NCBI RefSeq assembly: GCF_016026235.1
Contig: NZ_CP065613.1
Source of the DNA: Escherichia coli
Lineage (GTDB): Bacteria > Pseudomonadota > Gammaproteobacteria > Enterobacterales > Enterobacteriaceae
Length of the DNA stretch: 64,000 nt
Strand: one strand, 5' to 3'
Shown here piece by piece: positions 695-46,604 of this stretch (positions within the stretch are counted from its first letter, which is position 1; each line of letters opens with the position of its first letter). Position numbers and translations under genes: made by a program. A model generated the notes under the pieces. That model was not told the origin of the DNA. It was given only the letters and a program-made list of their open reading frames with translations, and searched no databases.

Positions 695-880
695 AGTGGT
701 GATCTCCTTGAAATTGTTAGCACAATCAATTAGATCACATCTCACTATGCCTGTCTTGTTTTCTGGGGATTCCTCAGGGGTGTTCCCTCCTCCGGTTCGC
801 TGTTCTGGTGCTGTTTATCTTCAGTCTGTCGCACTTCATTTTCCGTTTTTTTGACTTCATTTGAGGAGATATGATGACCG
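1..880 (-). mobile_element. IS4-family insertion sequence, partial; inner end somewhere in 745-880
   Basis: Transposase gene above; terminal inverted repeat not identified, so boundary is approximate. Confidence 0.4.
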
Positions 881-2352
881 GGAATCCATTTCGGATCATT
901 CGGGTCGCTAATCCCTTCAACAAATTCTCCGCGAGAGGCAGCCAGTAATTTGTCTGCATCGACAGGATTTTTGGGCGGAATGTTTTTCCGGGCTTCATGG
1001 AGTTCTGCCCGCAGTTCCTGATATTTCTCATCAACAGCATTTACCTGTGACTGAGCATCCAGCGGCTGCGTGTCCTGATGATGTTCAGTTGCATCCGGTT
1101 CCACTGTTTCAGCCGTTGCCTGTTCATCTGCCATTGCGCAAGATGGTTGCGGTTTTTCTTCATCATCCTGTTTTCCTTCTTCTGTTACTCGCTGCGGCAT
1201 CGGGGCAGAGGAGCGACCGCAGGCAATATCCACGATTTCCGGATCAGGGTTGGCATGATCGGTTTCAGTCAGTACCTTGTTCAGATATTCAGTGACGTGC
1301 GCGGGGATGACCTCGATACCAATCGGTGCTTCTTTCACTGACGCAACCACGATGGCGCGGGAATAATCCATCCCGCCAGGCATGGTGATGAATTTGTCGC
1401 GGAAAACAGAAAAGGGCGGTTTATTTTCAGTGATAATTTCCTCAATGCGTTTAGCGTGTGCCGGATGAAGATTATAAATATCCACGTCCATTGAACGGGC
1501 CAGTACGCCAGTGGCTACGTCGCGCGCCAGCGACGTCAGATCGTGGACGAAACCTTCGCCGCGATCGGTGAGGTTCCCGCCGCCAGCATTAGCACCGGAA
1601 GCCGTGCGAGTGATACGCGAAACACGATTTCCTTTCATCCACTCTTTTGTCAGCAGACCGCGATCGGTGTAGTTGGCATCCAGATATGCTTCGAAAAAAG
1701 CAGTCATCAGTCCCAGATTTGAATTGCCAGGATTAGGGAAAACTTTGTCAGTATCACGCACGAGTTTGTGGAGGTCGCGAATCTCCAGCGGGTCGAGCAG
1801 ACTGGTTTTATGCGAAACAGCCAGAGCAGTAACAGCCGGTAGTTCTTCATCCCGAGCAATGTGTAATGCCTGGAGTTCGTCGCGTGAAACGTGCGTTACC
1901 GGTTTTTCGCTGCCGTGTTGCGCAAGCCAACGAATGGGCAGTTCCTGACCGGAAACTGGCAGGAGCATGTTCTCCTCAATTTCTGTCATGTCTTCGCCGT
2001 TGACGTTGGTATTGTCAGTGCTGGCTGGTTTGTCCTGAACAGAGGGAGAAGATGCGATAAATACCATTGTGATGCCATCTTCCCCGCCTTTTTCGTAACG
2101 GTTGCAGAATTCCGTATCAAACACGCCTTCTGGTGGGAGGTCATCAACAACGGGCAAATTGACGCGAACAGGTTTTTTAAAGTCATCTTCATCGTAGCCA
2201 GCATCGTCAATCGCAACAGCACCACGGGAGATGGCAATGGATAATTTTTTCGCTTCAGCCCAGTAAAAACCGCCTTTAATACCGAGGCGTTTTCTTACTT
2301 TGTCATTTTTTGCTTCGTAATACAGTGGGTAAACTTGTTTATCGGTGCTCAT
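745..2352 (-). CDS. recE: RecE-like exonuclease VIII, N-terminal region (about 535 aa); C-terminal nuclease domain absent, 3' end apparently read into IS-proximal sequence
   Basis: 535-aa ORF in the Rac-like leftward recombination operon; sequence resembles recalled RecE N-terminal/central region; full RecE is about 866 aa. Confidence 0.45.
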
Positions 2353-2375: not shown

Positions 2376-2672
2376 TCAGATTGCATAAAAGAAACGAACT
2401 GATGATGCGATATGAGAGAGTTCTTTCAGTCGTTGATAACTGATACCGTATTTCTTGTCAGCCTCTTCAATGCGAGCTGTGAGTAATGCAATTTCTTTAA
2501 TGGCACATACACAACAATCAAATGTTCCCAGAACGTAACCGTCATCAATAATTACCGTGACGTTTTCTTTTTGGGAAATCTGAATGAAACTATGTAATGT
2601 ATTCCCACATTTAAATTCGGCGAGAGAATCGTTAATAACATCAAGTTCAATTTCACATTCAATAATGCTCAT
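2376..2672 (-). CDS. hypothetical protein (RacC-like position), 98 aa
   Basis: ORF track 2376..2720; internal ATG at 2672 preceded by AAGGAA Shine-Dalgarno; immediately upstream of recE-like gene. Confidence 0.45.
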   Translation of the reverse strand: MSIIECEIELDVINDSLAEFKCGNTLHSFIQISQKENVTVIIDDGYVLGTFDCCVCAIKEIALLTARIEEADKKYGISYQRLKELSHIASSVRFFYAI

Positions 2673-2746
2673 TGCTGTTTCCTTTTTTAAGGTTGAGTGA
2701 ATCCCTGCCATTGCTGGCATAAATTCAGTTTCGAATATTCAGTTAA

Positions 2747-3034
2747 TTAAAGTTCGTGTGCCATCTTGTCTTTTTCGGCACAAGCTGCACTGCAATATTT
2801 TCGTTTCTTTCTGGCAATCATGTTTCCATGCATATAAATAAGCTCGCCAGTAAAAGCTTTTTCAGGTAAAAACTGTTTATTGCAGAGATGGTAATCACAT
2901 TGTATTAAATCCAGGTCACCTTTTTGCTGGAGAATTTTTCTGATTCTCCACAGCCATTTTTTAATCCCGGTATGACTGATGGTCTGCCTGAGGGCAGGTG
3001 TAAAACAATAATCAAGCATGGGGTTCATATCCAT
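2747..3034 (-). CDS. hypothetical small Cys-containing protein
   Basis: 95-aa ORF in operon context; no family recognised. Confidence 0.3.
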   Translation of the reverse strand: MDMNPMLDYCFTPALRQTISHTGIKKWLWRIRKILQQKGDLDLIQCDYHLCNKQFLPEKAFTGELIYMHGNMIARKKRKYCSAACAEKDKMAHEL

Positions 3035-3044
3035 AGCTCCATTT

Positions 3045-3590
3045 TTATTTTAAGGAAAGCAACTGCTCTACGGTCATGTTTTTAATTGCGCCCCGGTTTA
3101 CAAGAGTCCAGCCCTGTTTTTCCAGATAAAACCGGAAAGTCTCCAGGGTACAGACCAGTGCGCCATCAGGAACGGTTTCGGTGAATTCGACATTGCCGAA
3201 TTTGTCGAAGTGAACAACCAGAGTGCGACCATCACCCGGAATCATCTTGTCAGCAGGTGGGGTGTTATTCTGGCGCAGTTCGGCCTCCATGCGGTCGAAC
3301 TCAGCAATGTAGGCTTCCTTGAATGTGGCGGCTTTTTTGCCCGTGAAGCCCATCACCAGGAAAACGAAGCCGTTTTTGGTGATTTGGTAGGCGTTATAAG
3401 AATTGCCGCGGTGTTCGAATTTAACCCGCGAAAAGTTGCTGGTTAAAAATAGTTCAGAACATTCGAGGGATTCTATTTTTTGAACAACATGGTGATGCTG
3501 CTTGCCAAAAAACTCAGCAATCGAAATAGAAGTAGTGACGGCGCGACCATTTTCGATGGTTACGTCAGGGTGAGAAAGGGTAGTAGCCAT
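3045..3590 (-). CDS. Rha-family phage regulatory protein
   Basis: Rha-like N-terminal domain from MATTLSHPDVTIENGRAVTTSISIAEFFGK; ATG at 3590. The 98-codon in-frame extension up to 3884 is low-complexity and contains a terminator, so not taken as coding. Confidence 0.55.
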   Translation of the reverse strand: MATTLSHPDVTIENGRAVTTSISIAEFFGKQHHHVVQKIESLECSELFLTSNFSRVKFEHRGNSYNAYQITKNGFVFLVMGFTGKKAATFKEAYIAEFDRMEAELRQNNTPPADKMIPGDGRTLVVHFDKFGNVEFTETVPDGALVCTLETFRFYLEKQGWTLVNRGAIKNMTVEQLLSLK

Positions 3591-3754
3591 AATGACATCC
3601 TCAAGTGATAAGTTAATTAACTCACCAGCAGAGGTGCTAATCTCATGGGTGGTGAGACGCACAGGGTTAGCACTACCGGTCACTCGAGAACCCGGCCAGC
3701 CTTGCGGCTGCCCCGCACGCCTCACCATAATTTGAATGTGGCTGTGCATTACGC

Positions 3755-3781
3755 ATAAAAAAACCGCTTCAGCGCGGTTAT
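3755..3781 (-). terminator. Rho-independent terminator (minus strand)
   Basis: Minus-strand hairpin AACCGC-GCTGAA-GCGGTT followed by TTTTTTT. Confidence 0.4.
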
Positions 3782-3905
3782 GCGCTCGAGTAACTTTCGG
3801 GGTGCTAATCCCGGCACCCGTTTTATGAGGTGCAGGTGCACTATAATTCCACCCGTTCTGGTTTTCAATAGCTACATTCAACATTTTCTCTTTCCTTTCA
3901 TCACC

Positions 3906-4060
3906 GAAGTGAATTTTGTGATGCGGTGCCTGGTGCCTCCAGGTGACGTTAACCAGTTAACAATTACAGTCGGCTTTCCCACCCAAAACAATAAGGACTA
4001 ACATGACTTTTAACTGTGCCGCGTGCGCTTAGCCGCATTCACCGCATCACAAAATTCACT
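3906..4060. repeat. Perfect 22-bp inverted repeat pair (3906-3927 and 4039-4060) flanking 111 bp
   Basis: AAGTGAATTTTGTGATGCGGTG at 3906-3927 and its exact reverse complement at 4039-4060; encloses palindrome GTTAACCAGTTAAC. Confidence 0.7.
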
Positions 4061-4291
4061 TTAAAAAGGGCGGACATCAGCCAGCAATTAAACCGATGCC
4101 GCCAACTGGTACTTCACACAGCAATGTCGTTATTTACAACCGGAAGCGCACTCCCACCATTTAAATTTCACAGACAAGACCGACTCTTTATGAATACCGG
4201 AAATGCGCCTTCGTGTTGTGCCCGGTTTTATTTCACCACCTCCGGGCTTTGGTGGTATCTTTACTGAAGTTCTCACACAACCAGTAAGGAA

Positions 4292-4615
4292 ATGAATATG
4301 CCAACGTATCTCGCCAGAGTAGAACTATATAATGCTGAGCCAGAGGATTACGAAGGGCTTCATAAATATATGCTCTCACTAGGATTCAGGAGAACGATCC
4401 CCCATGGAGATGGTTCGTATAATCAACTCCCGGACGGAACTTATGTTTCCGAAAAGGGCGGTGATATTTATCAAATTCGCAGCCAGATATCTGACTATGC
4501 AGACCGACTATCCGGGTATCGCGCGTCTGTTTTGTTTGCGAATTCAGTCAATGCGCATGGTATTTATACCCCGCCAAGACCCGGTGAATATCCTGCACGG
4601 CCTTCTGCTTTGTAG
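4292..4615 (+). CDS. hypothetical protein
   Basis: 107-aa ORF with AAGGAA Shine-Dalgarno before ATG. Confidence 0.4.
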   Translation: MNMPTYLARVELYNAEPEDYEGLHKYMLSLGFRRTIPHGDGSYNQLPDGTYVSEKGGDIYQIRSQISDYADRLSGYRASVLFANSVNAHGIYTPPRPGEYPARPSAL

Positions 4616-11816: not shown

Positions 11817-12181
11817 TGATTAATCGAACCAAACTGGAGCACATTCTCGAATATGCCAGGCAGCAGAAATGTATTGGGCAACTTTGTAAAATTCCACCAG
11901 GAGATATGGTTGAAATCGTGGAAATGGCCATGCGTAAGGCTGGCAACTCTCCGGTAACTCCGGCTGGCTGGATAAGCTGTAGTGATGCAGTTCCTGCTGA
12001 ATATTGCGATGTGATTCTTCTCGATGATCTCGGGAATGTATTCCCCGGTTCCTGGGATAAGGTTTTTTGCCCCACTCGTGGCGGGAATAAGATGGCTTTT
12101 GTGGACAAAGACGGCGTTGAAGTAGAGAGCTCAACTCACTGGATGCCGCTACCGGAACCACCGCAGGAGGTGAATCAATGA
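11816..12181 (+). CDS. DUF551-like prophage protein
   Basis: C-terminal FVDKDGVEVESSTHWMPLPEPP resembles DUF551. Confidence 0.55.
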   Translation: MINRTKLEHILEYARQQKCIGQLCKIPPGDMVEIVEMAMRKAGNSPVTPAGWISCSDAVPAEYCDVILLDDLGNVFPGSWDKVFCPTRGGNKMAFVDKDGVEVESSTHWMPLPEPPQEVNQ

Positions 12182-12261
12182 CCTGGCCTGAGGCATTCAC
12201 CACGGTAGGAATTGCGATGGCGGTGGCGCTGGTGGTGTATTCGATTTGCCGTTGGGGTTAA
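12178..12261 (+). CDS. possible 27-aa hydrophobic peptide
   Basis: ATGA overlap with upstream stop; MTWPEAFTTVGIAMAVALVVYSICRWG; directly followed by a terminator. Confidence 0.25.
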   Translation: MTWPEAFTTVGIAMAVALVVYSICRWG

Positions 12262-12266
12262 CAAAC

Positions 12267-12298
12267 AAAAACCCCGGATTGATGGTCCGGGGTTTTTG
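12267..12298 (+). terminator. Rho-independent terminator
   Basis: CCCCGGA-TTGATGG-TCCGGGG hairpin followed by TTTTT. Confidence 0.6.
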
Positions 12299-12479
12299 AA
12301 GGAAACAAAACAGAAACAGCAATTGCCGTTACCTGTTGTTACCATGGCAAGTAAACGTATCTCAGGCGAGCGCATTGCGCCGTTCTGACGCAGATAAACT
12401 AGCCTGGATAGATGGTGCTGGCAATAAAAAATAGCGTTTTCTTATCGGTGTCGGTAAGATTGCTGCGGGTGCTTGAGGC

Positions 12480-12635
12480 TGTCTGCCTCGGGCATGTCAC
12501 TGTAAGGCAGACAGAGAAAAGCCCCAGTTAACATTACGCGTCCTGCAAGACGCTTAACATTAATCTGAGGCCCAATCTATGTCTCACAAATGTAGGTTAG
12601 CCTCTTACGTGCCGAAAGGCAAGGAGAAGCAGGCT
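12480..12635. promoter_or_regulatory. hok mRNA leader with stem-loops; expected location of sok antisense RNA
   Basis: Inverted repeat GTCTGCCT...AGGCAGAC (12481-12512); 9-bp hairpin GGCGGGAGA-GTAA-TCTCCCGCC downstream at 12800-12822. Confidence 0.35.
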
Positions 12636-12791
12636 ATGAAGCAGCAAAAGGCGATGTTAATCGCCCTGATCGTCATCTGTTTAACCGTCATTGTGACGGC
12701 ACTGGTAACGAGGAAAGACCTCTGCGAGGTACGAATCCGAACCGGCCAGACGGAGGTCGCTGTCTTCGTAGACTACGAATCTAGAGAGTAA
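12579..12791 (+). CDS. mok: mok-like in-frame extended reading frame overlapping hok
   Basis: 70-aa ORF ending at the hok stop, as MokC extends HokC in E. coli. Confidence 0.4.
   Translation: MSHKCRLASYVPKGKEKQAMKQQKAMLIALIVICLTVIVTALVTRKDLCEVRIRTGQTEVAVFVDYESRE
12636..12791 (+). CDS. hok: Hok/Gef-family type I toxin
   Basis: MKQQKAMLIALIVICLTVIVTALVTRKDLCEVRIRTGQTEVAVF is near-identical in pattern to HokD/RelF; AAGGAG Shine-Dalgarno. Confidence 0.8.
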   Translation: MKQQKAMLIALIVICLTVIVTALVTRKDLCEVRIRTGQTEVAVFVDYESRE

Positions 12792-13069
12792 GAGTGACCA
12801 GGCGGGAGAGTAATCTCCCGCCACCTTTGATGTGTCAGGCATCCTCAACGCACCCGCACTTAACCCGTTTCGGCGGTTTTTTTTGTTGCGTGCTGAATAC
12901 GCAGGGTGAAAAATAACCATATATTTGATTATATACACAACAAAAAATAAAAGTCATTGTACTTGCACATTAAACAATCAAATATACGGCGTGAAATAAA
13001 TGTTTTTCAGATTAATATTTTTGTCTCTATGTGGATATAACCGTTTGTACTTATAAACCTGGAGGCATC

Positions 13070-13282
13070 GTGGAAAAAATAAAGAAACTATTTAGTAGCA
13101 AATACGCAGTCATACGTCGTGATGACCTGTCAGTTATAGTCGAAATGGATTACTTCCCTGAAACCCCAAAATCAATAATGTATCGTAATGGTCGAAAGGC
13201 AATTTTTTTACCGATGAGGGTAAGTGACATTATGGGAAATGATAAACTGCTGGATGAATTGCGAGTCAGAGCATCCTGTTAG
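13070..13282 (+). CDS. hypothetical protein
   Basis: GTG at 13070 preceded by GGAGG; track start 13031 lacks a ribosome-binding site. Confidence 0.4.
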   Translation: MEKIKKLFSSKYAVIRRDDLSVIVEMDYFPETPKSIMYRNGRKAIFLPMRVSDIMGNDKLLDELRVRASC

Positions 13283-13353
13283 TATTGGCATTAATTCTGG
13301 TATACTACATAACGGGCTGAACACCCATTCTACTGCGCCAGCGGAGAACTACG

Positions 13354-13953
13354 ATGGCGCATATACAACTGGTCAAACAAACCTCTTCCGGATTACTTCT
13401 CCCGGCGACGCCGGAGAGTTGCGATTTTTTGCATCAAATCAAAATAGGTGAGTGGATACACGCAGACTTTAAGCGTGTGCGTAACTACGCATTCCACAAG
13501 CGTTTTTTCAAACTCCTGCAACTGGGATTTGATTACTGGACTCCGGTCGGTGGGGCGATCACGCCTCGCGAACGAAAACTGGTATCAGGCTTCGTTGATT
13601 ACCTGTGCGAATCAGTAGGTCGGGAACACACTCCAGCCCTGAGTGATGCCGCAGAGCAATACCTTAATACAGTTGCGACATGCAGAACCCGGGATACGGC
13701 ATTGCTAAAGTCGTTTGACGCTTTCCGCGAGTGGGTAACCATTCAGGCCGGATTTTACACCGAGCATATTTATCCTGATGGTAGTCGTGGGCGCAGGGCA
13801 AAATCTATCGCATTTGCGAACATGGACGAAACCGAGTTTCAGCAGGTTTATAAATCTGTACTGAATGTGCTGTGGAACTGGATCCTGTTCCGTAAATTTT
13901 CCTCTCCGGAACAAGTCGAAAATGTGGCCGCGCAGCTACTGGAGTTTGCGTAA
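13354..13953 (+). CDS. DUF1367-like lambdoid prophage protein
   Basis: 199-aa ORF in the nin-like region upstream of Q. Confidence 0.5.
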   Translation: MAHIQLVKQTSSGLLLPATPESCDFLHQIKIGEWIHADFKRVRNYAFHKRFFKLLQLGFDYWTPVGGAITPRERKLVSGFVDYLCESVGREHTPALSDAAEQYLNTVATCRTRDTALLKSFDAFREWVTIQAGFYTEHIYPDGSRGRRAKSIAFANMDETEFQQVYKSVLNVLWNWILFRKFSSPEQVENVAAQLLEFA

Positions 13954-14794: not shown

Positions 14795-14883
14795 CTCAAT
14801 CTGTTATCCGGGGCTATATTCCTCACGCGCCAGCAAAATCTGGCGTCGGGATTGGCGTCCCGGATGTTTACGGAGCGATATGA

Positions 14884-14904
14884 GACGCGCCCGCGTCTTT
14901 TTTC
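14884..14904 (+). terminator. Hairpin plus T-run downstream of Q (possible tR'-like terminator)
   Basis: GACGCG-CCC-GCGTC followed by TTTTTT. Confidence 0.4.
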
Positions 14905-15066
14905 ATATCGTTTGCACAGTCTCATTCGCGATTTATGGCGGGCTGTGTGGGGGAGCCGAAAGGCTCGCCGGTTTCCGTACCCGGTTACGCCAACCCTGCA
15001 CAGTTCGCCACCAGTTCGATTGGCGTCGTCGGTGGCGATAATTTCCAAATGTACGGAGTTATCGTT

Positions 15067-15832: not shown

Positions 15833-15909
15833 GGCCCTTTAGCTCAGTTGGTCAGAGCGAGCGACTCATAATCGCCAGGTCGCTGGTTCAAGTCCAGCAA
15901 GGGCCACCA
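15833..15909 (+). tRNA. tRNA with CAU anticodon (Met or Ile2, ileZ-like)
   Basis: Manual cloverleaf: acceptor GGCCCTT/AAGGGCC, anticodon loop CTCATAA, 3' CCA. Confidence 0.8.
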
Positions 15910-15910
15910 A

Positions 15911-15987
15911 CCACCACTAGCTCATCCGGATAGAGCATCAACCTTCTAAGTTGACGGTGCGAGGTTCGAGTCCTCGGTGGTGGGCCA
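15911..15987 (+). tRNA. tRNA-Arg (UCU)
   Basis: Acceptor CCACCAC/GTGGTGG, anticodon loop CTTCTAA, T-loop TTCGAGT, 3' CCA. Confidence 0.75.
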
Positions 15988-15989
15988 GC

Positions 15990-16065
<76 letters not shown>

Positions 16066-16068
16066 TAT

Positions 16069-16143
<75 letters not shown>

Positions 16144-40494: not shown

Positions 40495-41352
40495 CTAATT
40501 GGGTGATAACAGATCCTGTGTATGGGCGTTTCCCTTTGTGCGTGCGTTGATGCTGGTAACGGTAAACGTCATGATGAACACGACCGCGAATAAGACGACA
40601 ATCGTCGGAGCTGGTGCGCTGTCGATAAAAAAGGACAGCCAGACACCAGTCATTGACACTATTACCGATATGCCAGTCGCCAGTAGGAGCGCAATATGAA
40701 AGCGTTGTGTCAGGAGTACTGCAATGGCGCCAGGCGCAATGAGCAGAGAAATAGAGAGAATGATACCTACTGCTTTCAGCGTCGCCACAATGGTCAGGGA
40801 AACCATGCACAGCAGCCCATAATGCAGCCATCTCGTATGCAAACCGCTTACCTGCGCCTGTTGATAATCAAAGCTGAACAGCAAAAAATCCCGCCATTTT
40901 ACGCTAATAACAAGTGTAACCAGCCCGGCAATAATCACCGTCTGGATTATATCGCCGATGGTTATCCCGAGCATGTCGCCGAAAAGAATATGGTCAAGAT
41001 GTACGTCTGGTTTGATTGCAATATACAAGATCAGACCTGCGGCAAACATGCCAGAAAAAACAATCCCCATAACTGTATCTTGCTTGATTCGGCTGTTGTC
41101 TTTCAGGTATCCCGTCGCCACCGCGCAGAATACTCCGGCGACGAATGCCCCTGTAGCCAGAGGTAACCCCAGAATCCAGGTAAGCACGATGCCAGGAAAA
41201 ACCGCATGACTCATCGCGTCACCCATCAGTGCCCAACCTTTCAGGACCAGAAAGACCGACAGCAGCGCACAGGGTATGGAAACTACCAGTGAAATCAGCA
41301 GTGCGTGACTCATAAAGGTGAACTGCAGTGGCTCCAGTAATAATGCCATCAT
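40495..41352 (-). CDS. sitD: Mn/Fe ABC transporter permease SitD
   Basis: 285-aa polytopic membrane protein; last gene of sitABCD; 4-bp overlap with sitC. Confidence 0.85.
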   Translation of the reverse strand: MMALLLEPLQFTFMSHALLISLVVSIPCALLSVFLVLKGWALMGDAMSHAVFPGIVLTWILGLPLATGAFVAGVFCAVATGYLKDNSRIKQDTVMGIVFSGMFAAGLILYIAIKPDVHLDHILFGDMLGITIGDIIQTVIIAGLVTLVISVKWRDFLLFSFDYQQAQVSGLHTRWLHYGLLCMVSLTIVATLKAVGIILSISLLIAPGAIAVLLTQRFHIALLLATGISVIVSMTGVWLSFFIDSAPAPTIVVLFAVVFIMTFTVTSINARTKGNAHTQDLLSPN

Positions 41353-42206
41353 GAGCGATCCTCCAGCGCTTTATGCGCACGCCGACGATTTGCCAAAAGT
41401 CCATGGGTGGGCGCAAATACAAATGCTAAAAGAAACAGCAGTGTCTGCGCCACCACGATGATTCCACCTGTCGCGCCGTCCAGAAAGTAACTGACCCACG
41501 CGCCGAGGAAACTGGTTACACTGCCAATAGTTACAGCAATTATGAGCAGGCGGGGAAAACGATCGGTTAACAACCATGCTGTTGCACCGGGAGTCACCAC
41601 CAGACAGATCACCAGAAAGGCACCAACCGTTTGCAGCGCCGCAACGGTCGAAACCGACAGCAGGGTGAAGAAGAGGATTTTTAATCTGCCCGGATGTAAT
41701 CCAATAGCACGGGCGTGATTCTCGTCGAAAAAGGTCACCATAAGATCTTTCCATTTGAAAAAAAGCACGATGATCGAGAGAATGCCAATGATAGTGAGTT
41801 GCAGGATATCCGCCGGATCGATTGCCAGAATATTGCCCAGGACGATGGTCTGAATGTTCACGGATGTCGGGTTCAATGACACCATAAACAGCCCCAGGCC
41901 AAAAAAGGACGAGAAGATCAGGCCGATGATGGCATCTTCTTTTAAGCGGGTGCGTTGGTTAAGAAACAGCATGCTGCCCGCTGCCAGTCCGCCGGAAAAG
42001 AAGGCTCCCAGAGAAAACGGAAGCCCCAGCATATATGCCCCCGCAACACCCGGGACAATAGAGTGCGACAGCGCATCGCCAATCAGCGACCAGCCTTTTA
42101 GCATCAGATAGCATGACAGGAAAGCGCAGAGACCGCCGACCATTGCCGAGACCCACATCGCATTGAGCATATATTCATAGCTGAAGGGTTCCAGTAGCAC
42201 GTTCAT
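41349..42206 (-). CDS. sitC: Mn/Fe ABC transporter permease SitC
   Basis: 285-aa ABC-3 family permease. Confidence 0.85.
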
Positions 42207-43030
42207 CTTGCTTCCCTCTGCACCGCTGACGGTCGATGTGCCACAAAAGGGCGTTCATCGTCAGTAATAATGCTTTCTTCCGAGCCGTTAAGTGTGACAT
42301 GGCGCAGTACGCCGCTAAAAGCCAGCTCCAGGTTCTCGGCTGTAAAAGTGGTGTCTGTCGGCCCGCTTGCCAGGACGGTGCCTTTGACCATGACCGTATA
42401 ATCGCAAAATGTCGTGACTGAGCCGAGATTGTGCGTTGAGACAAGCATCGTTTTGCCTTCCGCGCGTAACTCCCTCAACAGGCTGATGATTTTCGCTTCG
42501 GTTTTCACATCAACGCCGGTAAAAGGTTCATCCAGCAGGATCACATCACCCTGCTGTGCAATCGCTCTCGCCAGAAAGACGCGTTTCTTTTGTCCACCGG
42601 AAAGCTCGCCGATTTGACGATGGCGAAAATCCACCATATCGACACGTTCCAGCGCATCGGTGACAATCTGACGATCCCTCTTTTTGGCTATACGCAACAT
42701 ACCCATATGCCCATAGCGGCCCATCATCACCACATCTTCCACCAGTACAGGAAATGACCAGTCAACCTCTTCTGACTGAGGGACGTAGGCAACCAGGTTT
42801 TTCTGTAGCGCCTGTCGCGTGGGAATACCCAGAACAGATATCTTTCCGCTGGTCAGACGCACAAATCCCATAATCGCTTTAAACAACGTCGATTTTCCGG
42901 AACCGTTTACCCCAACCAGAGCGGCAATAGATCCACTTGGTACTGTGAAGGATGCATCGCGCAGTGCTGTGTGCCCGTTACGCCAGGTGACAGTAACATC
43001 ATTAACGACAATGCCTGCAGATTGCATCAT
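42203..43030 (-). CDS. sitB: Mn/Fe ABC transporter ATP-binding protein SitB
   Basis: Walker [10 protein letters not shown], signature LSGGQKKR, Walker B ILLDEP. Confidence 0.85.
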
Positions 43031-43944
43031 TATTTCTCCCTTTTCCCGGCTTTAATTCCCTGTACCAGCGTACTGGTAGTAACCTTAAGAAGGTCGATAT
43101 ACGTAGGTACCGGGCCGTTTTCTGTGCTCAGGGAATCGACATAGAGCACACCGCCGTAGTGTGCGCCGGTTTCACGCGCAACCTGACGCGCTGGTTTATC
43201 GGAAATCGTACTCTCGCTAAAGACTGCCGGGATATGATTTTTCTTAACTATATCAACAACCTTACGTACCTGCTGCGGTGTTCCTTGTTGATCGGCATTA
43301 ATCGGCCACAGATAAAGCTCTTTTAGCCCCAAATCGCGTGCGAGATAAGAAAAAGCCCCTTCACTGGTGACCATCCATCGCTGATTCTCAGGGAGTTCCG
43401 TAATCTGCTTACGCAGGGGGGCAAGGGTTTGGGTAATCTTGGCTTTATAAGTATCGGCATTACGTTGGTAGGTTTGTGCATTTGCCGGATCGTATTTTAT
43501 CAACGCATCACGAATATTATCGACGTAAATCAGAGCATTATCTGGCGACATCCATGCATGGGGATTAGGTTTGCCCTCATAGGGTCCTTCGGTGATCCCT
43601 ACTGGCGTCACACCCGAAGAGACAATTACTTCTGGAACCCCATTGAGATGCTGGTAAAAGCGTTGGAACCACAATTCCAGATTCATACCATTGGCGAGAA
43701 TCAGTTGTGCCCCCTGCGCACGTTTAATATCGCCAGGGGTAGGCTGATACTCATGAATTTCTGCACCAGGCTTGGTTATGGATGAGACTTCTGCAGCATC
43801 TCCAGCCACGTTTTTGGCCATATCCGCGATGATGGTAAATGTTGTAATGACCTTGAATTTTTCAGTTGCACTTGCCTGAAATGCGATCGAGCAGGTGAGG
43901 GCGAGGCACCCCAAGAGCATGGTTACTTTTTTTATTGAGTGCAT
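43030..43944 (-). CDS. sitA: Periplasmic Mn/Fe-binding protein SitA
   Basis: 304 aa, signal peptide, cluster A-I substrate-binding family. Confidence 0.85.
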
Positions 43945-43976
43945 AATTTAGTACCTATAGTGAGCAAAATTAGAAC

Positions 43977-43998
43977 AAACATAGCAACGGCTATGTTT
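43977..43998. promoter_or_regulatory. MntR box upstream of sitA
   Basis: Perfect inverted repeat AAACATAGC-AACG-GCTATGTTT, 33-54 bp upstream of the sitA start codon. Confidence 0.6.
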
Positions 43999-44020
43999 TA
44001 TAGCATAACCTATACAAAAT

Positions 44021-44039
44021 GAAAATAATTATCATTAAC
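44021..44039. promoter_or_regulatory. Fur box upstream of sitA
   Basis: GAAAATAATTATCATTAAC matches Fur consensus GATAATGATAATCATTATC at 15 of 19 positions. Confidence 0.5.
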
Positions 44040-44497
44040 AGCTTTGAGGCCTAAAACAGGGATTAGGTTGTTTCCTGCTGGCGACATGATATTGAGGAAA
44101 AAAGTAGAGCAGCTATTAGGCTTTGAAATGACTTTATGAGGAAAATTGTTGATGGCAAAAATGGGGCAAAACGCTGTAGAAGGGGCAAAAAAGGGGCAAA
44201 AAAAGAGTGGGTTATCGTAGCTTATTGTTGTCGCTGATAATGTTTAACATATTGAAAAATAAATAAAATACTTATGAGTCAGATAGTTGTGATTTTTGCC
44301 CTTACTTGTTCAGATTGTATTGTTCTTTCTTGCTAATTTCTTGATTTTGCGACATTTAAAAGCGACTCAATTCGTTATATGGCATCAGAAGAGTATGCGT
44401 CATGCCGGAACGCCCAGCATAAGAAATCTGATATAAAAACTGTGGCGTGTATGGTACGGATTAGAGGGGAAAATGTCAGCACATTTGCGAAATGAAT

Positions 44498-44524
44498 CAA
44501 AAAGCCCGCAGCAATGTGCGGGCG
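44498..44524 (-). terminator. Rho-independent terminator of uspF
   Basis: Minus-strand GCCCGCA-CATTGCT-GCGGGC followed by TTTTT. Confidence 0.5.
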
Positions 44525-44530
44525 TTAGTG

Positions 44531-45046
<516 letters not shown>

Positions 45047-45075
45047 TTAGATCAAAGGAGGAAGAATAAGCAGAA

Positions 45076-45102
45076 AAAGCCCGCCATAACAGCGGGCAGG
45101 AG
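45076..45102 (-). terminator. Rho-independent terminator of ompN
   Basis: Minus-strand GCCCGC-TGTTATG-GCGGGC followed by TTTTT. Confidence 0.5.
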
Positions 45103-45105
45103 GAT

Positions 45106-46239
45106 TTAGAACTGATAAACCAGACCTAAAGCGACAATATCATCGGTAGAGATGCCGTTGGCAGCGTAGAAACTGTCATCTTCATCCAACAGGTTGATTT
45201 TATAGTCAACATAAGTGGACATGTTTTTATTGAAATAGTAAGTCGCGCCAACATCGGCGTATTTAACCAGATCTTTATCATCAACACCTGCCGGGTTGTC
45301 TGCACCACCGGCAGCGTGCAGGTCACGGCCTTTAGACATCAGGAAAGAGACTGCCGGACGCAGACCAAAATCAAACTGGTACTGTGCAGTGACTTCAAAG
45401 TTCTGGGTTTTGTTTGCAACAGCATAATCGCTGTCGCCAAACGGGGTCATATTACGCGTTTCTGAATACATGGTTGCCAAGTAAATATTGTTAGCATCGT
45501 ATTTTAGCCCAGCAGTCCACGCGTCTGCTTTATCACCACCCGCCGCAGTATGGTTAACCTGGTCATTGGTGCGGTCAGAAGAGGTGTATGCCGCACCAGC
45601 GCTAAAGCCCATGCCTAAATCATATGTTGTGGAAAGACCCCAGCCGTCACCGTTTTCATGGCGAACATCACGTCCGTTGTTGGTGCCTTCCTGACCATTA
45701 CTGGCACCTTCGTTGTTACCTTGATACTGCACCGCGAAGTTCAGACCATTTACCAGACCGAAGAAATCAGTATTACGATAAGTCGCGACGCCATTGGCAC
45801 GACCAGTCATAAAGTTGTCTGCATTGGTATAAGAGTCACCGCCAAATTCAGGCAGCATATCGGTCCAGCCTTCGATGTCGTACATTACGCCATAATTACG
45901 TCCGTAATCGAAAGAACCGTAATCTGAAAATTTCAGTCCGGCAAATGCCAGACGGGTCCATGACTGGTTTTTTGAAGATTCAGTGTTGTTTGCCTGAATA
46001 TTGTATTCCCATTGACCGTAGCCAGTAAGTTGATCGTTAATTTGGGTTTCGCCTTTAAAACCCAGACGCGCATAGCTCTGGTCGCCATCTTTCGCTGAAT
46101 TATCAGAAAAATAATGCAGGCCATCAACTTTGCCATACAGATCTAATTTGTTGCCGTCTTTATTATAAACTTCGGCTGCATGTGCAGCACCTGCGCCGAG
46201 CAGGGCAGGAATTAAAAGTGCCAGTACTTTGCTTTTCAT
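45106..46239 (-). CDS. ompN: Outer membrane porin OmpN
   Basis: 377-aa OmpC/F-family porin with signal peptide, C-terminal LVYQF. Confidence 0.85.
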
Positions 46240-46548
46240 TGAATAAATCCTTTAGTTATTTTATTTGCCTTTTATCCCCATTTCGGGGAGTGAAAACATC
46301 CTAAAGGAGAAGTTCAGTTAGCCGATAAATATCATTTGTTACGCCTTAAGTAAAACCTTAATCAAAAAATTCCTCTGAAATGATAATAAGTCTGGTGAAT
46401 GTATCGAAGATAATACATACAAAATAAAAATTATACTTTTAATTTTCTATACGTTATTCTGCGCGGGTTATATGCCTTTATTGTCACAGATTTTATTTTC
46501 TGTTGGGCCATTGCATTGCCACTGATTTTCCAACATATAAAAAGACAA

Positions 46549-46580
46549 GCCCGAACAGTCGTCTGGGCTTTTTTTTAGAA
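46549..46580. terminator. Bidirectional hairpin terminator between ydbK and ompN
   Basis: AAGCCC...GGGCTT hairpin flanked by A-run and T-run. Confidence 0.45.
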
Positions 46581-46604
46581 TTGGATAATCCTTATCCAGA
46601 GCAT

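Follow-up and report, generated by a model that had tools for sequence, protein, structure and literature searches.

Features of the locus

The window analysed in this study is a stretch of 64,000 nt of Escherichia coli DNA (RefSeq assembly GCF_016026235.1, contig NZ_CP065613.1). It carries a small toxin gene, hok, an overlapping upstream frame, mok, and a set of RNA elements distributed over both strands, the coordinates of which are collected in Table 1. The conservation of the elements was evaluated in 51 distinct copies, consisting of the window and 50 distinct IMG/VR copies, to which the cassette of the window is 83–99% identical. An initial annotation, made from the sequence without database searches, had proposed a 51-aa toxin of the Hok/Gef family, a mok-like in-frame extension from 12579, an inverted repeat in the leader and a 9-bp hairpin 3' of the gene, and all four could be recovered in the analyses described below.

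Table 1. Coordinates of the features of the hok/mok/sok locus, numbered from the first base of the window
Feature	Position	Strand	Remarks
hok promoter -10 box (putative), TAAGAT	12455-12460	+	Tentative placement; TAGAAT in most relatives
Full-length hok mRNA (predicted), ~418 nt	12467-12884	+	5' end placed from conservation; 3' end at a weak hairpin and eight T
tac (translational activator element), GGGUGCUUGAGG	12467-12478	+	Invariant in 51 copies
Leader hairpin with GTCTGCCT/AGGCAGAC repeat	12479-12514	+	From folding and repeat search
ucb (anti-Shine-Dalgarno box), AAGCCCCA	12519-12526	+	Invariant
Sok (predicted), ~71 nt	12587 to ~12517	-	Mapped by alignment from the sokW misc_RNA of 933W
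mok Shine-Dalgarno region, UGAGGC	12566-12571	+	Invariant in 51 copies
Hypervariable tract	12572-12593		22 bases; entropy peak among copies
mok	12579-12791	+	70 codons, same frame as hok; runs through hok
dcb (downstream complementary box)	12581-12586	+	Pairs with the mok Shine-Dalgarno in the truncated fold, giving the Sok-target hairpin
Sok promoter (predicted)	12594-12622	-	-35 TTGCCT (12622-12617), 17-nt spacer, -10 TAACCT (12599-12594); read from sequence
hok Shine-Dalgarno, AAGGAG	12621-12626	+	9 nt before the hok ATG; read from sequence
hok	12636-12791	+	51 aa, Hok/Gef membrane toxin; Pfam PF01848
UACG motif at Tyr47-Glu48	12774-12777	+	Invariant in 51 copies
9-bp hairpin, GUAA loop	12801-12822	+	GGCGGGAGA/TCTCCCGCC; -19.7 kcal/mol, z -4.7
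fbi (fold-back inhibitory element), CCUCAACGCACCC	12843-12855	+	12 pairs with tac, one bulged C
Terminator-like element (weak)	12865-12884	+	4-bp stem, UUCG loop, eight T; -4.7 kcal/mol, z 0.16

Toxin gene and the overlapping mok frame

The Pfam profile search revealed a match of PF01848 (HOK_GEF) to the 51-aa ORF with an E-value of 1.3e-22 and all 42 model positions covered, and the same ORF was matched by PHROG 251, 'MokW-like host killing' (E 3.6e-32). The NCBIfam Hok models reached 53 bits against a curated cut-off of 73, and because these scores lie under the curated cut-offs the product bears the generic name 'Hok/Gef family protein'. The toxin gene had already been called by the annotation pipeline. 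The protein is 96% identical to HokW, from which only the last two residues differ, 92% identical to K-12 HokD and 43% identical to the Hok of plasmid R1. Alignment with these three proteins revealed C15, T17, L29-C30-E31 and E40 as invariant, in agreement with the conserved set given in a recent preprint (10.1101/2025.08.07.668861). The identical protein could be found on at least 1000 public contigs. The UACG motif at Tyr47-Glu48, which was described together with its conservation in the same preprint, may be a TadA A-to-I recoding site that would change Tyr to Cys. Folding indicated that a local hairpin presenting TACG in the manner of the tRNA-Arg anticodon loop is possible (4 bp), but the minimum free energy (MFE) structure differs.

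The mok frame spans the hok start and has a Shine-Dalgarno sequence of its own, with GAGG located 8 nt upstream of its ATG. This ATG is kept in 50 of the 51 distinct copies, the exception having an ACG start, and mok shares the frame of hok in 46 of the 51. Among the variants, two copies have mok in the +1 frame, while two others have a 19-codon upstream ORF with an ATGA overlap. The exact 70-aa mok product occurs on 142 contigs.

Elements of the hok transcript

A covariance-model search against Rfam, proposed in the initial annotation as a check of the locus, gave a match to RF01794 at 118.4 bits, twice the gathering score of 59 (E 2.4e-26; 12467-12641; model positions 1-157). For other Rfam families, a search of 12100-13400 at a relaxed threshold produced sub-threshold noise only. 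The putative -10 box of hok lies 6 nt upstream of the start of the Rfam match and of the conserved block, and it aligns with TATGAT of an R1-type locus; no convincing -35 box could be found for hok. A consensus scan for promoters and terminators missed the promoters of both hok and Sok as well as the two terminators, and these elements were placed by homology and folding. The start of the homology block falls at 12459 in 50 of 80 phage loci and at 12463 in 11 more, and its end falls at 12865-12867 or at 12882-12888. The ends of the conserved block coincide in these loci with the predicted ends of the transcript. The folding energy of a 421-nt transcript was -164 kcal/mol (z -6.8), a stability that was not reached by any of 100 shuffled sequences.

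Within the leader, GTCTGCCT at 12481-12488 pairs with AGGCAGAC at 12505-12512 as part of a longer imperfect repeat, and this hairpin contains one compensatory change from G-C to A-U, present in 17 of the 51 copies. The 9-bp hairpin downstream of hok shows compensatory changes in three pairs (24 cells). This hairpin is not the terminator; its counterpart in the R1 model is the final stem-loop of the mRNA after 3' processing. It likely protects the 3' end of the active, processed mRNA, a role that is taken from work on R1 (PMC9841398). The terminator-like element beyond fbi is weak in the window, and most relatives have a stronger terminator-like sequence, CCCGCUUCGGCGGG, at this place.

Predicted Sok antisense RNA

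A sok antisense RNA had been expected on the opposite strand without being delimited, and it could be placed here on the minus strand by its homology to sokW. The predicted RNA consists of a 14-nt single-stranded 5' tail, GUGAGACAUAGAUU, which is complementary to the mok start region, followed by a long hairpin and UUUU. The folding energy was -29.2 kcal/mol (z -5.3) and the hairpin is terminator-like. Among the 51 copies, the +1 position is invariant and the hairpin carries compensatory changes; the extended form of this hairpin is present in 47, including the window. The Sok promoter lies inside mok and is nearly invariant among the copies, with a mean pairwise difference of 0.047. At the sequence level, the locus thus contains a predicted cis-antisense Sok with a promoter in mok, a free 5' tail and a terminator hairpin. 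In the homologous locus, the sokW RNA has been detected and acts as an antitoxin (PMC8621323). In the same work, the mutagenic primer YO-421 listed by Takada et al. replaces exactly the corresponding -10 bases, which is consistent with the 'promoter-less' sokW construct.

The RF01794 match, which bears the name 'sok', was reported on the plus strand and would, if read literally, put the antitoxin RNA on that strand at 12467-12641; this reading is scarcely tenable, as the 157-position model starts at the tac sequence, ends at the hok AUG and therefore describes the hok leader instead of the antisense RNA, while the annotated sokW is a 71-nt RNA on the opposite strand and the Sok promoter and the terminator-like hairpin are both on the minus strand.

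Predicted conformational switch

In the predicted fold of the full-length transcript, tac and fbi form 12 pairs across 364 nt, and ucb is paired with the mok Shine-Dalgarno, which is sequestered. The long-range complementarity between the 5' and 3' regions (12467-12478 with 12843-12855) had been missed in the initial annotation. In the fold of a transcript truncated before fbi, tac pairs with ucb and the mok Shine-Dalgarno pairs with dcb. The closed and open states are the predicted MFE structures of the full-length and truncated RNAs, respectively, and the hok Shine-Dalgarno is paired with 12780-12782 in both. When the transcript is truncated further to end at 12826, tac pairs with 12485-12495, the 5' arm of the leader hairpin, and this arm can also pair with tac in the nascent transcript.

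The tac/fbi interaction was paired in 100% of the cells in the 51 copies, without variation, and a compensatory difference could be observed against an R1-type locus. The tac/ucb and ucb/Shine-Dalgarno pairs likewise never vary within the subfamily. The covariation sample consisted of the hokW/hokD subfamily, and covariation is uninformative for these three interactions because the pairs are invariant within the subfamily. For dcb and the mok Shine-Dalgarno, 79% of the cells were paired across alleles compared to approximately 40% in slid controls, which gives weak evidence that dcb may take part in a Sok-target hairpin. Across the 51 distinct copies, tac, ucb, the mok Shine-Dalgarno, fbi, the Sok promoter, the mok ATG and the Sok +1 are invariant or nearly so.

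Comparison with known loci

The hokW/mokW/sokW locus of the Stx2 phage 933W and the Sakai prophage Sp5 (AF125520; PMC8621323) is the same cassette, with 93% DNA identity over 12459-12865. The tac, ucb, mok Shine-Dalgarno, Sok promoter, hok Shine-Dalgarno and fbi elements are identical, and the extended Sok hairpin is shared. The two loci differ in the allele of the Sok 5' tail and mok N-terminus (GUGAGACAUAGAUUGG in the window, GUUCAGCAUGGAUUGA in 933W), in the C-terminus of Hok (...SRE in the window, ...SEK in 933W) and in the sequence after fbi, where 933W is without the terminator-like element of the window. In 933W, the cassette is not upstream of Q but on the other strand, at the right end of the phage. 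The hokW-sokW locus of Sp5 acts as a type I toxin–antitoxin (TA) system, in which the toxicity of HokW is counteracted by sokW when this is expressed from its own promoter (PMC8621323). The locus of the window belongs to the hokW-sokW subfamily, with which it shares a near-identical cassette sequence, including the extended form of the Sok hairpin and invariant tac, fbi and Sok promoter elements.

Compared with hok/sok (parB) of plasmid R1, the paradigm for the mechanism, the window shares tac, the leader hairpin, ucb, the Sok-target region, mok, hok, the 3' hairpin and fbi, and the same full-length tac/fbi fold is predicted for both. All regulatory parts of the R1 model are represented in the window. 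The Sok hairpin of the window is approximately 20 nt longer than that of R1, and the extra length shows up as an insertion against the Rfam consensus. The R1 locus is plasmid-borne, whereas that of the window is prophage-borne.

In K-12, hokD (relF) of the Qin prophage has the hok Shine-Dalgarno, coding sequence, 3' hairpin, fbi and terminator homologous to those of the window, but it shares only 12622-12882 with it; relBE stands where the window has the promoter, tac, ucb and the mok start, together with the Sok RNA and its -10 box. As the homology is limited to 12622-12882, the window holds the full cassette, from which K-12 hokD appears to be derived by 5' truncation. Assignment of the window to the hokD type (relBEF) was also considered; it was rejected, as the whole leader is present and the homology to K-12 starts only at 12622.

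Taken as a whole, the region 12455-12884 is best read as an intact hok/mok/sok type I TA cassette of the hokW/hokD subfamily that forms a self-contained prophage module and would work by the R1-type mechanism, a reading to which we assign a probability of about 0.9. By this mechanism, a weak promoter would give a stable hok mRNA of approximately 418 nt, in which tac would pair with fbi while ucb hides the mok ribosome-binding site, and this full-length mRNA would be neither translated nor bound by Sok. Slow trimming of the 3' end to the 9-bp hairpin would remove fbi, after which tac would pair with ucb and the mok Shine-Dalgarno would move into a small hairpin with dcb. The mok frame would then be translatable, and translational coupling would open the hok start. 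While the DNA is present and transcribed, a constitutive and unstable Sok of 71 nt would dock its 5' tail onto the mok start region, blocking mok and triggering cleavage of the duplex. Once Sok is no longer made, whether because the element is lost, transcription is shut off or the prophage is induced, the processed hok mRNA would be translated and Hok would depolarise the inner membrane.

Prophage setting

The cassette forms a 'moron' in a lambdoid prophage at the Rac position, with the replication/nin-like genes on one side and the Q antiterminator on the other. The prophage genes include recE, ydaT and a ydaU-like gene, and they are followed by sitABCD-like genes, uspF, an ompN-like porin gene, MicC and nifJ. 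The recE gene is truncated, indicating some decay of the prophage; the Rac prophage of K-12 is a deleted remnant. In 35 of the 64 phage loci examined, a Q gene of the DUF1133 type follows hok at a distance of no more than 3 kb. The hok region is 100% identical in strain VL40, where it lies in a prophage beside yecD/aspS. Derivation of the window from VL40 was rejected; its core genes are 98.8% identical to E. coli.

The initial annotation had read the locus as a mok/hok type I locus with RNA elements of the hok/sok type inside a prophage, with Sok on the opposite strand, and had further regarded hok in a Rac-type prophage as a different arrangement from K-12, where the closest relative sits in Qin. 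The former part could be upheld, but the latter could not. 'Escherichia phage Rac' of E. coli 442/2 (MN652886) is a prophage of the same type (dicA/ydaT/ydaU/ydaV...) and has the same order as the window, namely mok/hok, a small ORF, DUF1367, DUF1364 and Q (DUF1133). In Qin, the order is hokD-rem-ydfU-ydfT(Q), and hok is therefore in the same relative place as in the window. Since MN652886 already annotates mok/hok upstream of Q, at the place found in both the window and Qin, the claim of a different arrangement fails. The MN652886 cassette is 90% identical to the window at the DNA level and has another Sok-tail allele, a mok of 68 codons in the +1 frame and a Hok with a HokD-type C-terminus. 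The small ORF after hok also differs, being rem in MN652886 and a different ORF in the window; comparison of the window ORF (13031-13282) against K-12 Rem revealed no similarity.

Physiological role and activity

The physiological role of the cassette is most likely the selfish stabilisation of the prophage, and a contribution to lysis on induction, as reported for hokW-sokW, is possible. An RNA switch with delayed activation is what a post-segregational killer needs. That the main job is to aid phage lysis on induction and not prophage stabilisation, as proposed for hokW-sokW of Sp5, is possible but rather unlikely. According to this proposal, Sok is lost when the prophage is induced, and membrane damage by Hok precedes the action of holin and endolysin. 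After mitomycin C treatment of the Sp5 system, sokW disappears, HokW appears in a RecA-dependent manner and the phage yield halves without the locus (PMC8621323). In the window, hok is on the same strand as the early-right genes and upstream of Q; as hok is co-directional with these genes, we infer that induced read-through would oppose the Sok promoter. However, the effect in Sp5 was two-fold, and hokW is located there at the opposite end of the phage and in the opposite orientation. Since the tested hokW sits elsewhere in its phage, the role reported for it may not transfer to the window.

A defence by abortive infection, in which a lytic phage stops transcription in the host, Sok is degraded and the cell dies early through Hok, is a less likely role still. 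According to later citations of Pecota and Wood (1996), R1 hok/sok on a high-copy plasmid lowered the plating of T4, and the high-copy plasmid was required for this effect. [quoted passage not shown] Nothing in the window bears on such a defence role.

It is improbable that the cassette is a silent relic that, as with the hok loci of K-12, has kept an intact sequence but lost its expression or toxicity. In the direction of a relic point the two promoters, which are weak or unrecognised by the consensus scan, the weakened terminator of the window allele and the truncated recE of the host prophage, and the chromosomal hok homologues of K-12 have been suggested to be mostly inactive (preprint 10.1101/2025.08.07.668861). 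Against it, the cassette is free of any IS element, frameshift or truncation, whereas K-12 hokD has lost everything upstream of 12622. Moreover, all of the regulatory elements are identical at the positions invariant in the 51 copies, the same promoters drive the functional hokW-sokW, and the exact Hok protein is maintained on the public contigs counted above.

Hypervariable Sok-tail tract

Comparison of the copies revealed a hypervariable tract within the otherwise conserved cassette, covering the Sok 5' tail with its target (12572-12587) and the 6 nt that separate the Sok -10 box from +1. The mean pairwise difference in the tract was 0.37 and 0.33, compared with 0.04–0.06 at the third codon positions of hok. 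The tract is present as 20 alleles among 169 phage loci that are otherwise near-identical, and the allele of the window is one of the commoner ones (16 of 169 loci). The predicted duplex between tail and target reached approximately -24 kcal/mol for cognate pairs versus approximately -10 kcal/mol for non-cognate pairs. In the 14 pairs of cassettes residing in the same genome, the alleles differed in 13, compared with 90% of random pairs, which provides no evidence of selection in a comparison of little power.

As a tentative proposal, to which we give somewhat less than even odds, the 16-nt Sok 5' tail and its target around the mok start may serve as a specificity cassette, present in at least 20 alleles among phage-borne modules with 90-100% identity elsewhere. 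If so, several modules could reside in one cell, even in tandem in one prophage, each of them addictive and unsilenced by the Sok of its neighbour. No description of this idea could be found in the literature searched, and Sok and mok were explicitly excluded from the analysis in a recent catalogue of Hok.

Significance of the locus

A hok/mok/sok cassette of this kind is ordinary and very common in prophages, and the locus is of little significance in itself as one more intact copy of a common prophage-borne TA cassette. Its main use lies in annotation, as base-level coordinates are given for Sok, mok, tac, ucb, dcb and fbi, which the genome annotation omits; the Rfam 'sok' match is seen to mark the strand of the hok leader and not the antisense RNA, and K-12 hokD appears as a truncated form of the window-type cassette. 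E. coli genomes carry up to nine such cassettes. Should the hypervariable tract turn out to be under selection as a specificity determinant, it would hold modest interest, as it would explain how up to nine cassettes can be carried without neutralising one another.

Identification and anatomy of the cassette

The initial annotation had described a mok/hok type I toxin locus within the prophage, and this identification was correct. The predicted toxin ORF matched Pfam HOK_GEF (E 1.3e-22) and PHROG 251 'MokW-like host killing' (E 3.6e-32), and the mok-like in-frame extension, the leader inverted repeat and the perfect hairpin 3' of hok were all present. A covariance-model search with Rfam RF01794 scored the leader at 118.4 bits (gathering score 59), while the 421-nt transcript folded 6.8 standard deviations better than shuffles. 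The Pfam, PHROG and Rfam matches and the fold z-score indicate that the ORF, leader repeat and hairpin are not due to chance. The anatomy was obtained by alignment with hokW/mokW/sokW of Stx2 phage 933W, K-12 hokD and an R1-type plasmid locus, the RNA elements being named after the plasmid R1 model.

Features of the hok/mok/sok cassette and its prophage (window positions)
Feature	Position	Strand	Remarks
recE, truncated	745-2352	-	535 aa; positions 1-523 of 877-position exodeoxyribonuclease VIII model
hok -10 box	12455-12460	+	TAAGAT; inferred
hok mRNA +1	about 12467	+	
tac	12467-12478	+	
Leader hairpin	12479-12514	+	GTCTGCCT (12481-12488) pairs with AGGCAGAC (12505-12512)
ucb	12519-12526	+	
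Sok-complementary hairpin	12527-12565	+	exceeds R1 and Rfam consensus by about 20 nt
mok SD	12566-12571	+	
mok ATG	12579	+	in frame with hok; lengthens ORF to 70 codons
dcb	12581-12586	+	
hok SD	12621-12626	+	
hok	12636-12791	+	51-codon ORF; product MKQQKAMLIALIVICLTVIVTALVTRKDLCEVRIRTGQTEVAVFVDYESRE
3' hairpin	12801-12822	+	perfect 9 bp
fbi	12843-12855	+	
Weak terminator-like hairpin, eight T	12865-12884	+	CCCGTTTCGGCGG stem-loop; -4.7 kcal/mol, z 0.16
Sok -35	12622-12617	-	TTGCCT
Sok promoter spacer	17 nt	-	
Sok -10	12599-12594	-	TAACCT; 7 nt upstream of G12587
Sok RNA	12587-12517	-	71 nt; mapped from 933W sokW annotation
sitABCD-like Mn/Fe ABC transporter	40495-43944	-	prophage/chromosome junction
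MicC	46464-46584		

The antisense RNA, previously expected on the opposite strand but left undelimited, could be placed using the 933W sokW annotation. In its predicted fold (-29.2 kcal/mol, z -5.3), the first 14 nt (GUGAGACAUAGAUU), which are complementary to the mok start, stay single-stranded as a 5' tail, and a long hairpin with UUUU after it makes up the rest. Mutagenic primer YO-421 of Takada et al. (PMC8621323) substitutes exactly the Sok -10 bases, a change consistent with their promoter-less sokW construct. The RF01794 match, labelled 'sok', was rejected as the antisense RNA itself; it covers + strand positions 12467-12641, with tac at one end and the hok AUG at the other, so the 157-position model represents the hok leader. 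Automated annotation from RF01794 ('sok antitoxin') would assign Sok to the opposite of its true strand, at more than double its true length.

Folding of the full-length RNA predicted a closed state with tac/fbi (12 pairs, one bulge) and ucb/mok SD pairing. When the RNA ended before fbi, tac/ucb pairing and a small mok SD/dcb hairpin were predicted, giving an open, Sok-accessible state; in a still shorter RNA, tac was predicted to pair with 12485-12495, resembling the metastable hairpin of nascent transcripts. Closed, open and nascent states are those reported for R1 hok mRNA (PMC9841398). The R1-type locus folded in the same way; its tac/fbi helix (GGCGCUU/AAGCGCC) differs on both strands from that of the window (GGGUGCUU/AA-C-GCACCC). 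The terminator following fbi is weakened in the window allele and its closest relatives; most copies carry CCCGCTTCGGCGGG, and 933W-type copies lack it. The AT-rich stretch that separates the hok 3' end from the following ORF (12900-13030) contains two minus-strand promoter-like sites (12957-12928 and 13010-12981), both directed towards hok.

Conservation among phage copies

A peptide scan of IMG/VR revealed at least 575 phage loci encoding a close relative. Of the 80 loci that were retrieved, 50 had homology to the window beginning at 12459 and 11 more at 12463, with the block ending at 12865-12867 or 12882-12888; the mobile unit thus corresponds to the transcript. Across 51 different copies, little or no variation was seen in tac, ucb, the SD and ATG of mok, the promoter and +1 of Sok, the hok SD and fbi. 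Three helices were supported by compensatory changes: the leader hairpin with 17 cells, the hairpin of Sok with 3 pairs, and the 3' hairpin with 3 pairs and 24 cells. No variation occurred in these copies within tac/fbi, tac/ucb or ucb/SD, so covariation is silent on those helices either way.

The mok frame was shared with hok in 46 of the 51 copies. Of the five exceptions, two used the +1 frame (68 codons), two had a uORF of 19 codons that terminates in an ATGA overlap, and one began with ACG; these variants fit a role for mok in coupling translation, not in making a protein. The UACG motif at Hok Tyr47-Glu48 (12774-12777) was invariant in the 51 copies; this TadA-type Tyr-to-Cys recoding context has been described for hok genes (2026 preprint, 10.1101/2025.08.07.668861). 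CUACGAA could form the loop of a 4-bp stem there, but this is not the predicted MFE structure.

A hypervariable tract at the Sok tail

Within the otherwise 90-100% conserved cassette, positions 12572-12593 were hypervariable. This tract takes in the 5' tail of Sok together with its target and the initial codons of mok; the mok ATG and Sok +1 were its sole fixed points. The mean pairwise difference was 0.37 over Sok tail and target and 0.33 over the adjoining 6 nt; for comparison, third positions of hok codons gave 0.04-0.06, and the loop of the leader hairpin gave 0.18. Twenty tract alleles occurred in 169 IMG/VR loci, the window allele accounting for 16. Predicted tail-target duplexes averaged -24.5 kcal/mol for cognate versus -10.1 kcal/mol for non-cognate pairs.

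Such variability would fit selection for non-cross-reacting antitoxins. However, co-resident copies in the same genome differed in 13 of 14 pairs, no departure from the 90% expected by chance, and the 6 nt outside Sok were as variable as the tail, which could reflect relaxed constraint. One prophage fragment (IMG/VR locus L031) carried two complete cassettes 1.4 kb apart (2592-3010 and 3961-4380), differing in Sok-tail allele and Hok C-terminus (VDYESRE vs TAYEPEE); contig IMGVR_UViG_2681813268_000003 (loci L021 and L030) was listed as a further two-cassette case. The tract was not described in the literature searched, and a recent Hok catalogue states that it left Sok and mok unanalysed.

Distribution and gene order

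The cassette is of an already known kind and sequence. An identical Hok, named 'Hok/Gef family protein', was found in at least 1000 contigs, and an identical 70-aa Mok in 142; among 5,426 complete E. coli genomes, the query was partly matched in 4,720 (median 2, up to 9 places per genome). According to the recent catalogue, about 80% of Enterobacteriaceae genomes contain hok, which is enriched four-fold in prophages. [quoted passage not shown]

The initial annotation had considered location in Rac rather than Qin a different arrangement; this reading did not hold. GenBank MN652886 ('phage Rac') has mok/hok annotated likewise upstream of DUF1367, DUF1364 and Q, Qin reads hokD-rem-ydfU-ydfT(Q), and 35 of 64 phage loci had a DUF1133-type Q gene no more than 3 kb downstream of hok. 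K-12 hokD shares only 12622-12882, its promoter, tac, ucb, mok start and sok being replaced by relBE; judged by sequence, it looks like a derived, truncated form.

Prophage setting

The hok region was 100% identical to that of strain VL40, whose copy lies in a prophage adjoining yecD/aspS that carries ipaH. The window prophage contains the Rac-like genes truncated recE, ydaT and ydaU; recE of VL40 is interrupted by IS600. Beyond it, the interval 40495-46584 holds the sitABCD-like transporter, uspF, an ompN-like porin and MicC, followed in the right-hand third by core E. coli-type DNA (98.8% identity; nifJ, ydbH, tynA, paaZ), and these neighbours place the prophage at the Rac position. Around hok, the + strand order is DUF551, hok, a 70-aa ORF, a NinB-like DUF1367 protein, DUF1364 and a Q-like antiterminator.

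Two separate modules of isrK and C4 antisense RNA (P1/P7-type immunity RNAs) were also observed. One (3645-3833, -) is located inside or next to an ORF of 279 aa (3045-3884, -) that probably encodes the Rha-family regulator of the VL40 annotation; the other (14814-15015, +), with an a1/b1 target match at 14814-14866, directly follows Q, ahead of an antirepressor-like ORF. Four consecutive tRNA genes (15833-16140), annotated Ile, Arg, Thr and Gly in the near-identical VL40 prophage, lie between Q and the lysis genes, and Stx-type lambdoid phages have a similar arrangement.

Probable role

The RNA mechanism of the cassette is well supported by homology and structure; its physiological role is not well supported. 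Selfish stabilisation by post-segregational killing was ranked first, because the delayed-activation switch suits such killing. Help with lysis on induction, ranked second, may be suggested by analogy with the Sp5 data and by the sense orientation of hok in the early-right operon, from which we infer that induced read-through would oppose the Sok promoter. Abortive infection, ranked third, would rest on the R1/T4 data as cited in later literature. Both promoters are weak by consensus, the window allele has a poor terminator and the prophage shows some decay, but a silent relic is unlikely since no part of the cassette is broken.
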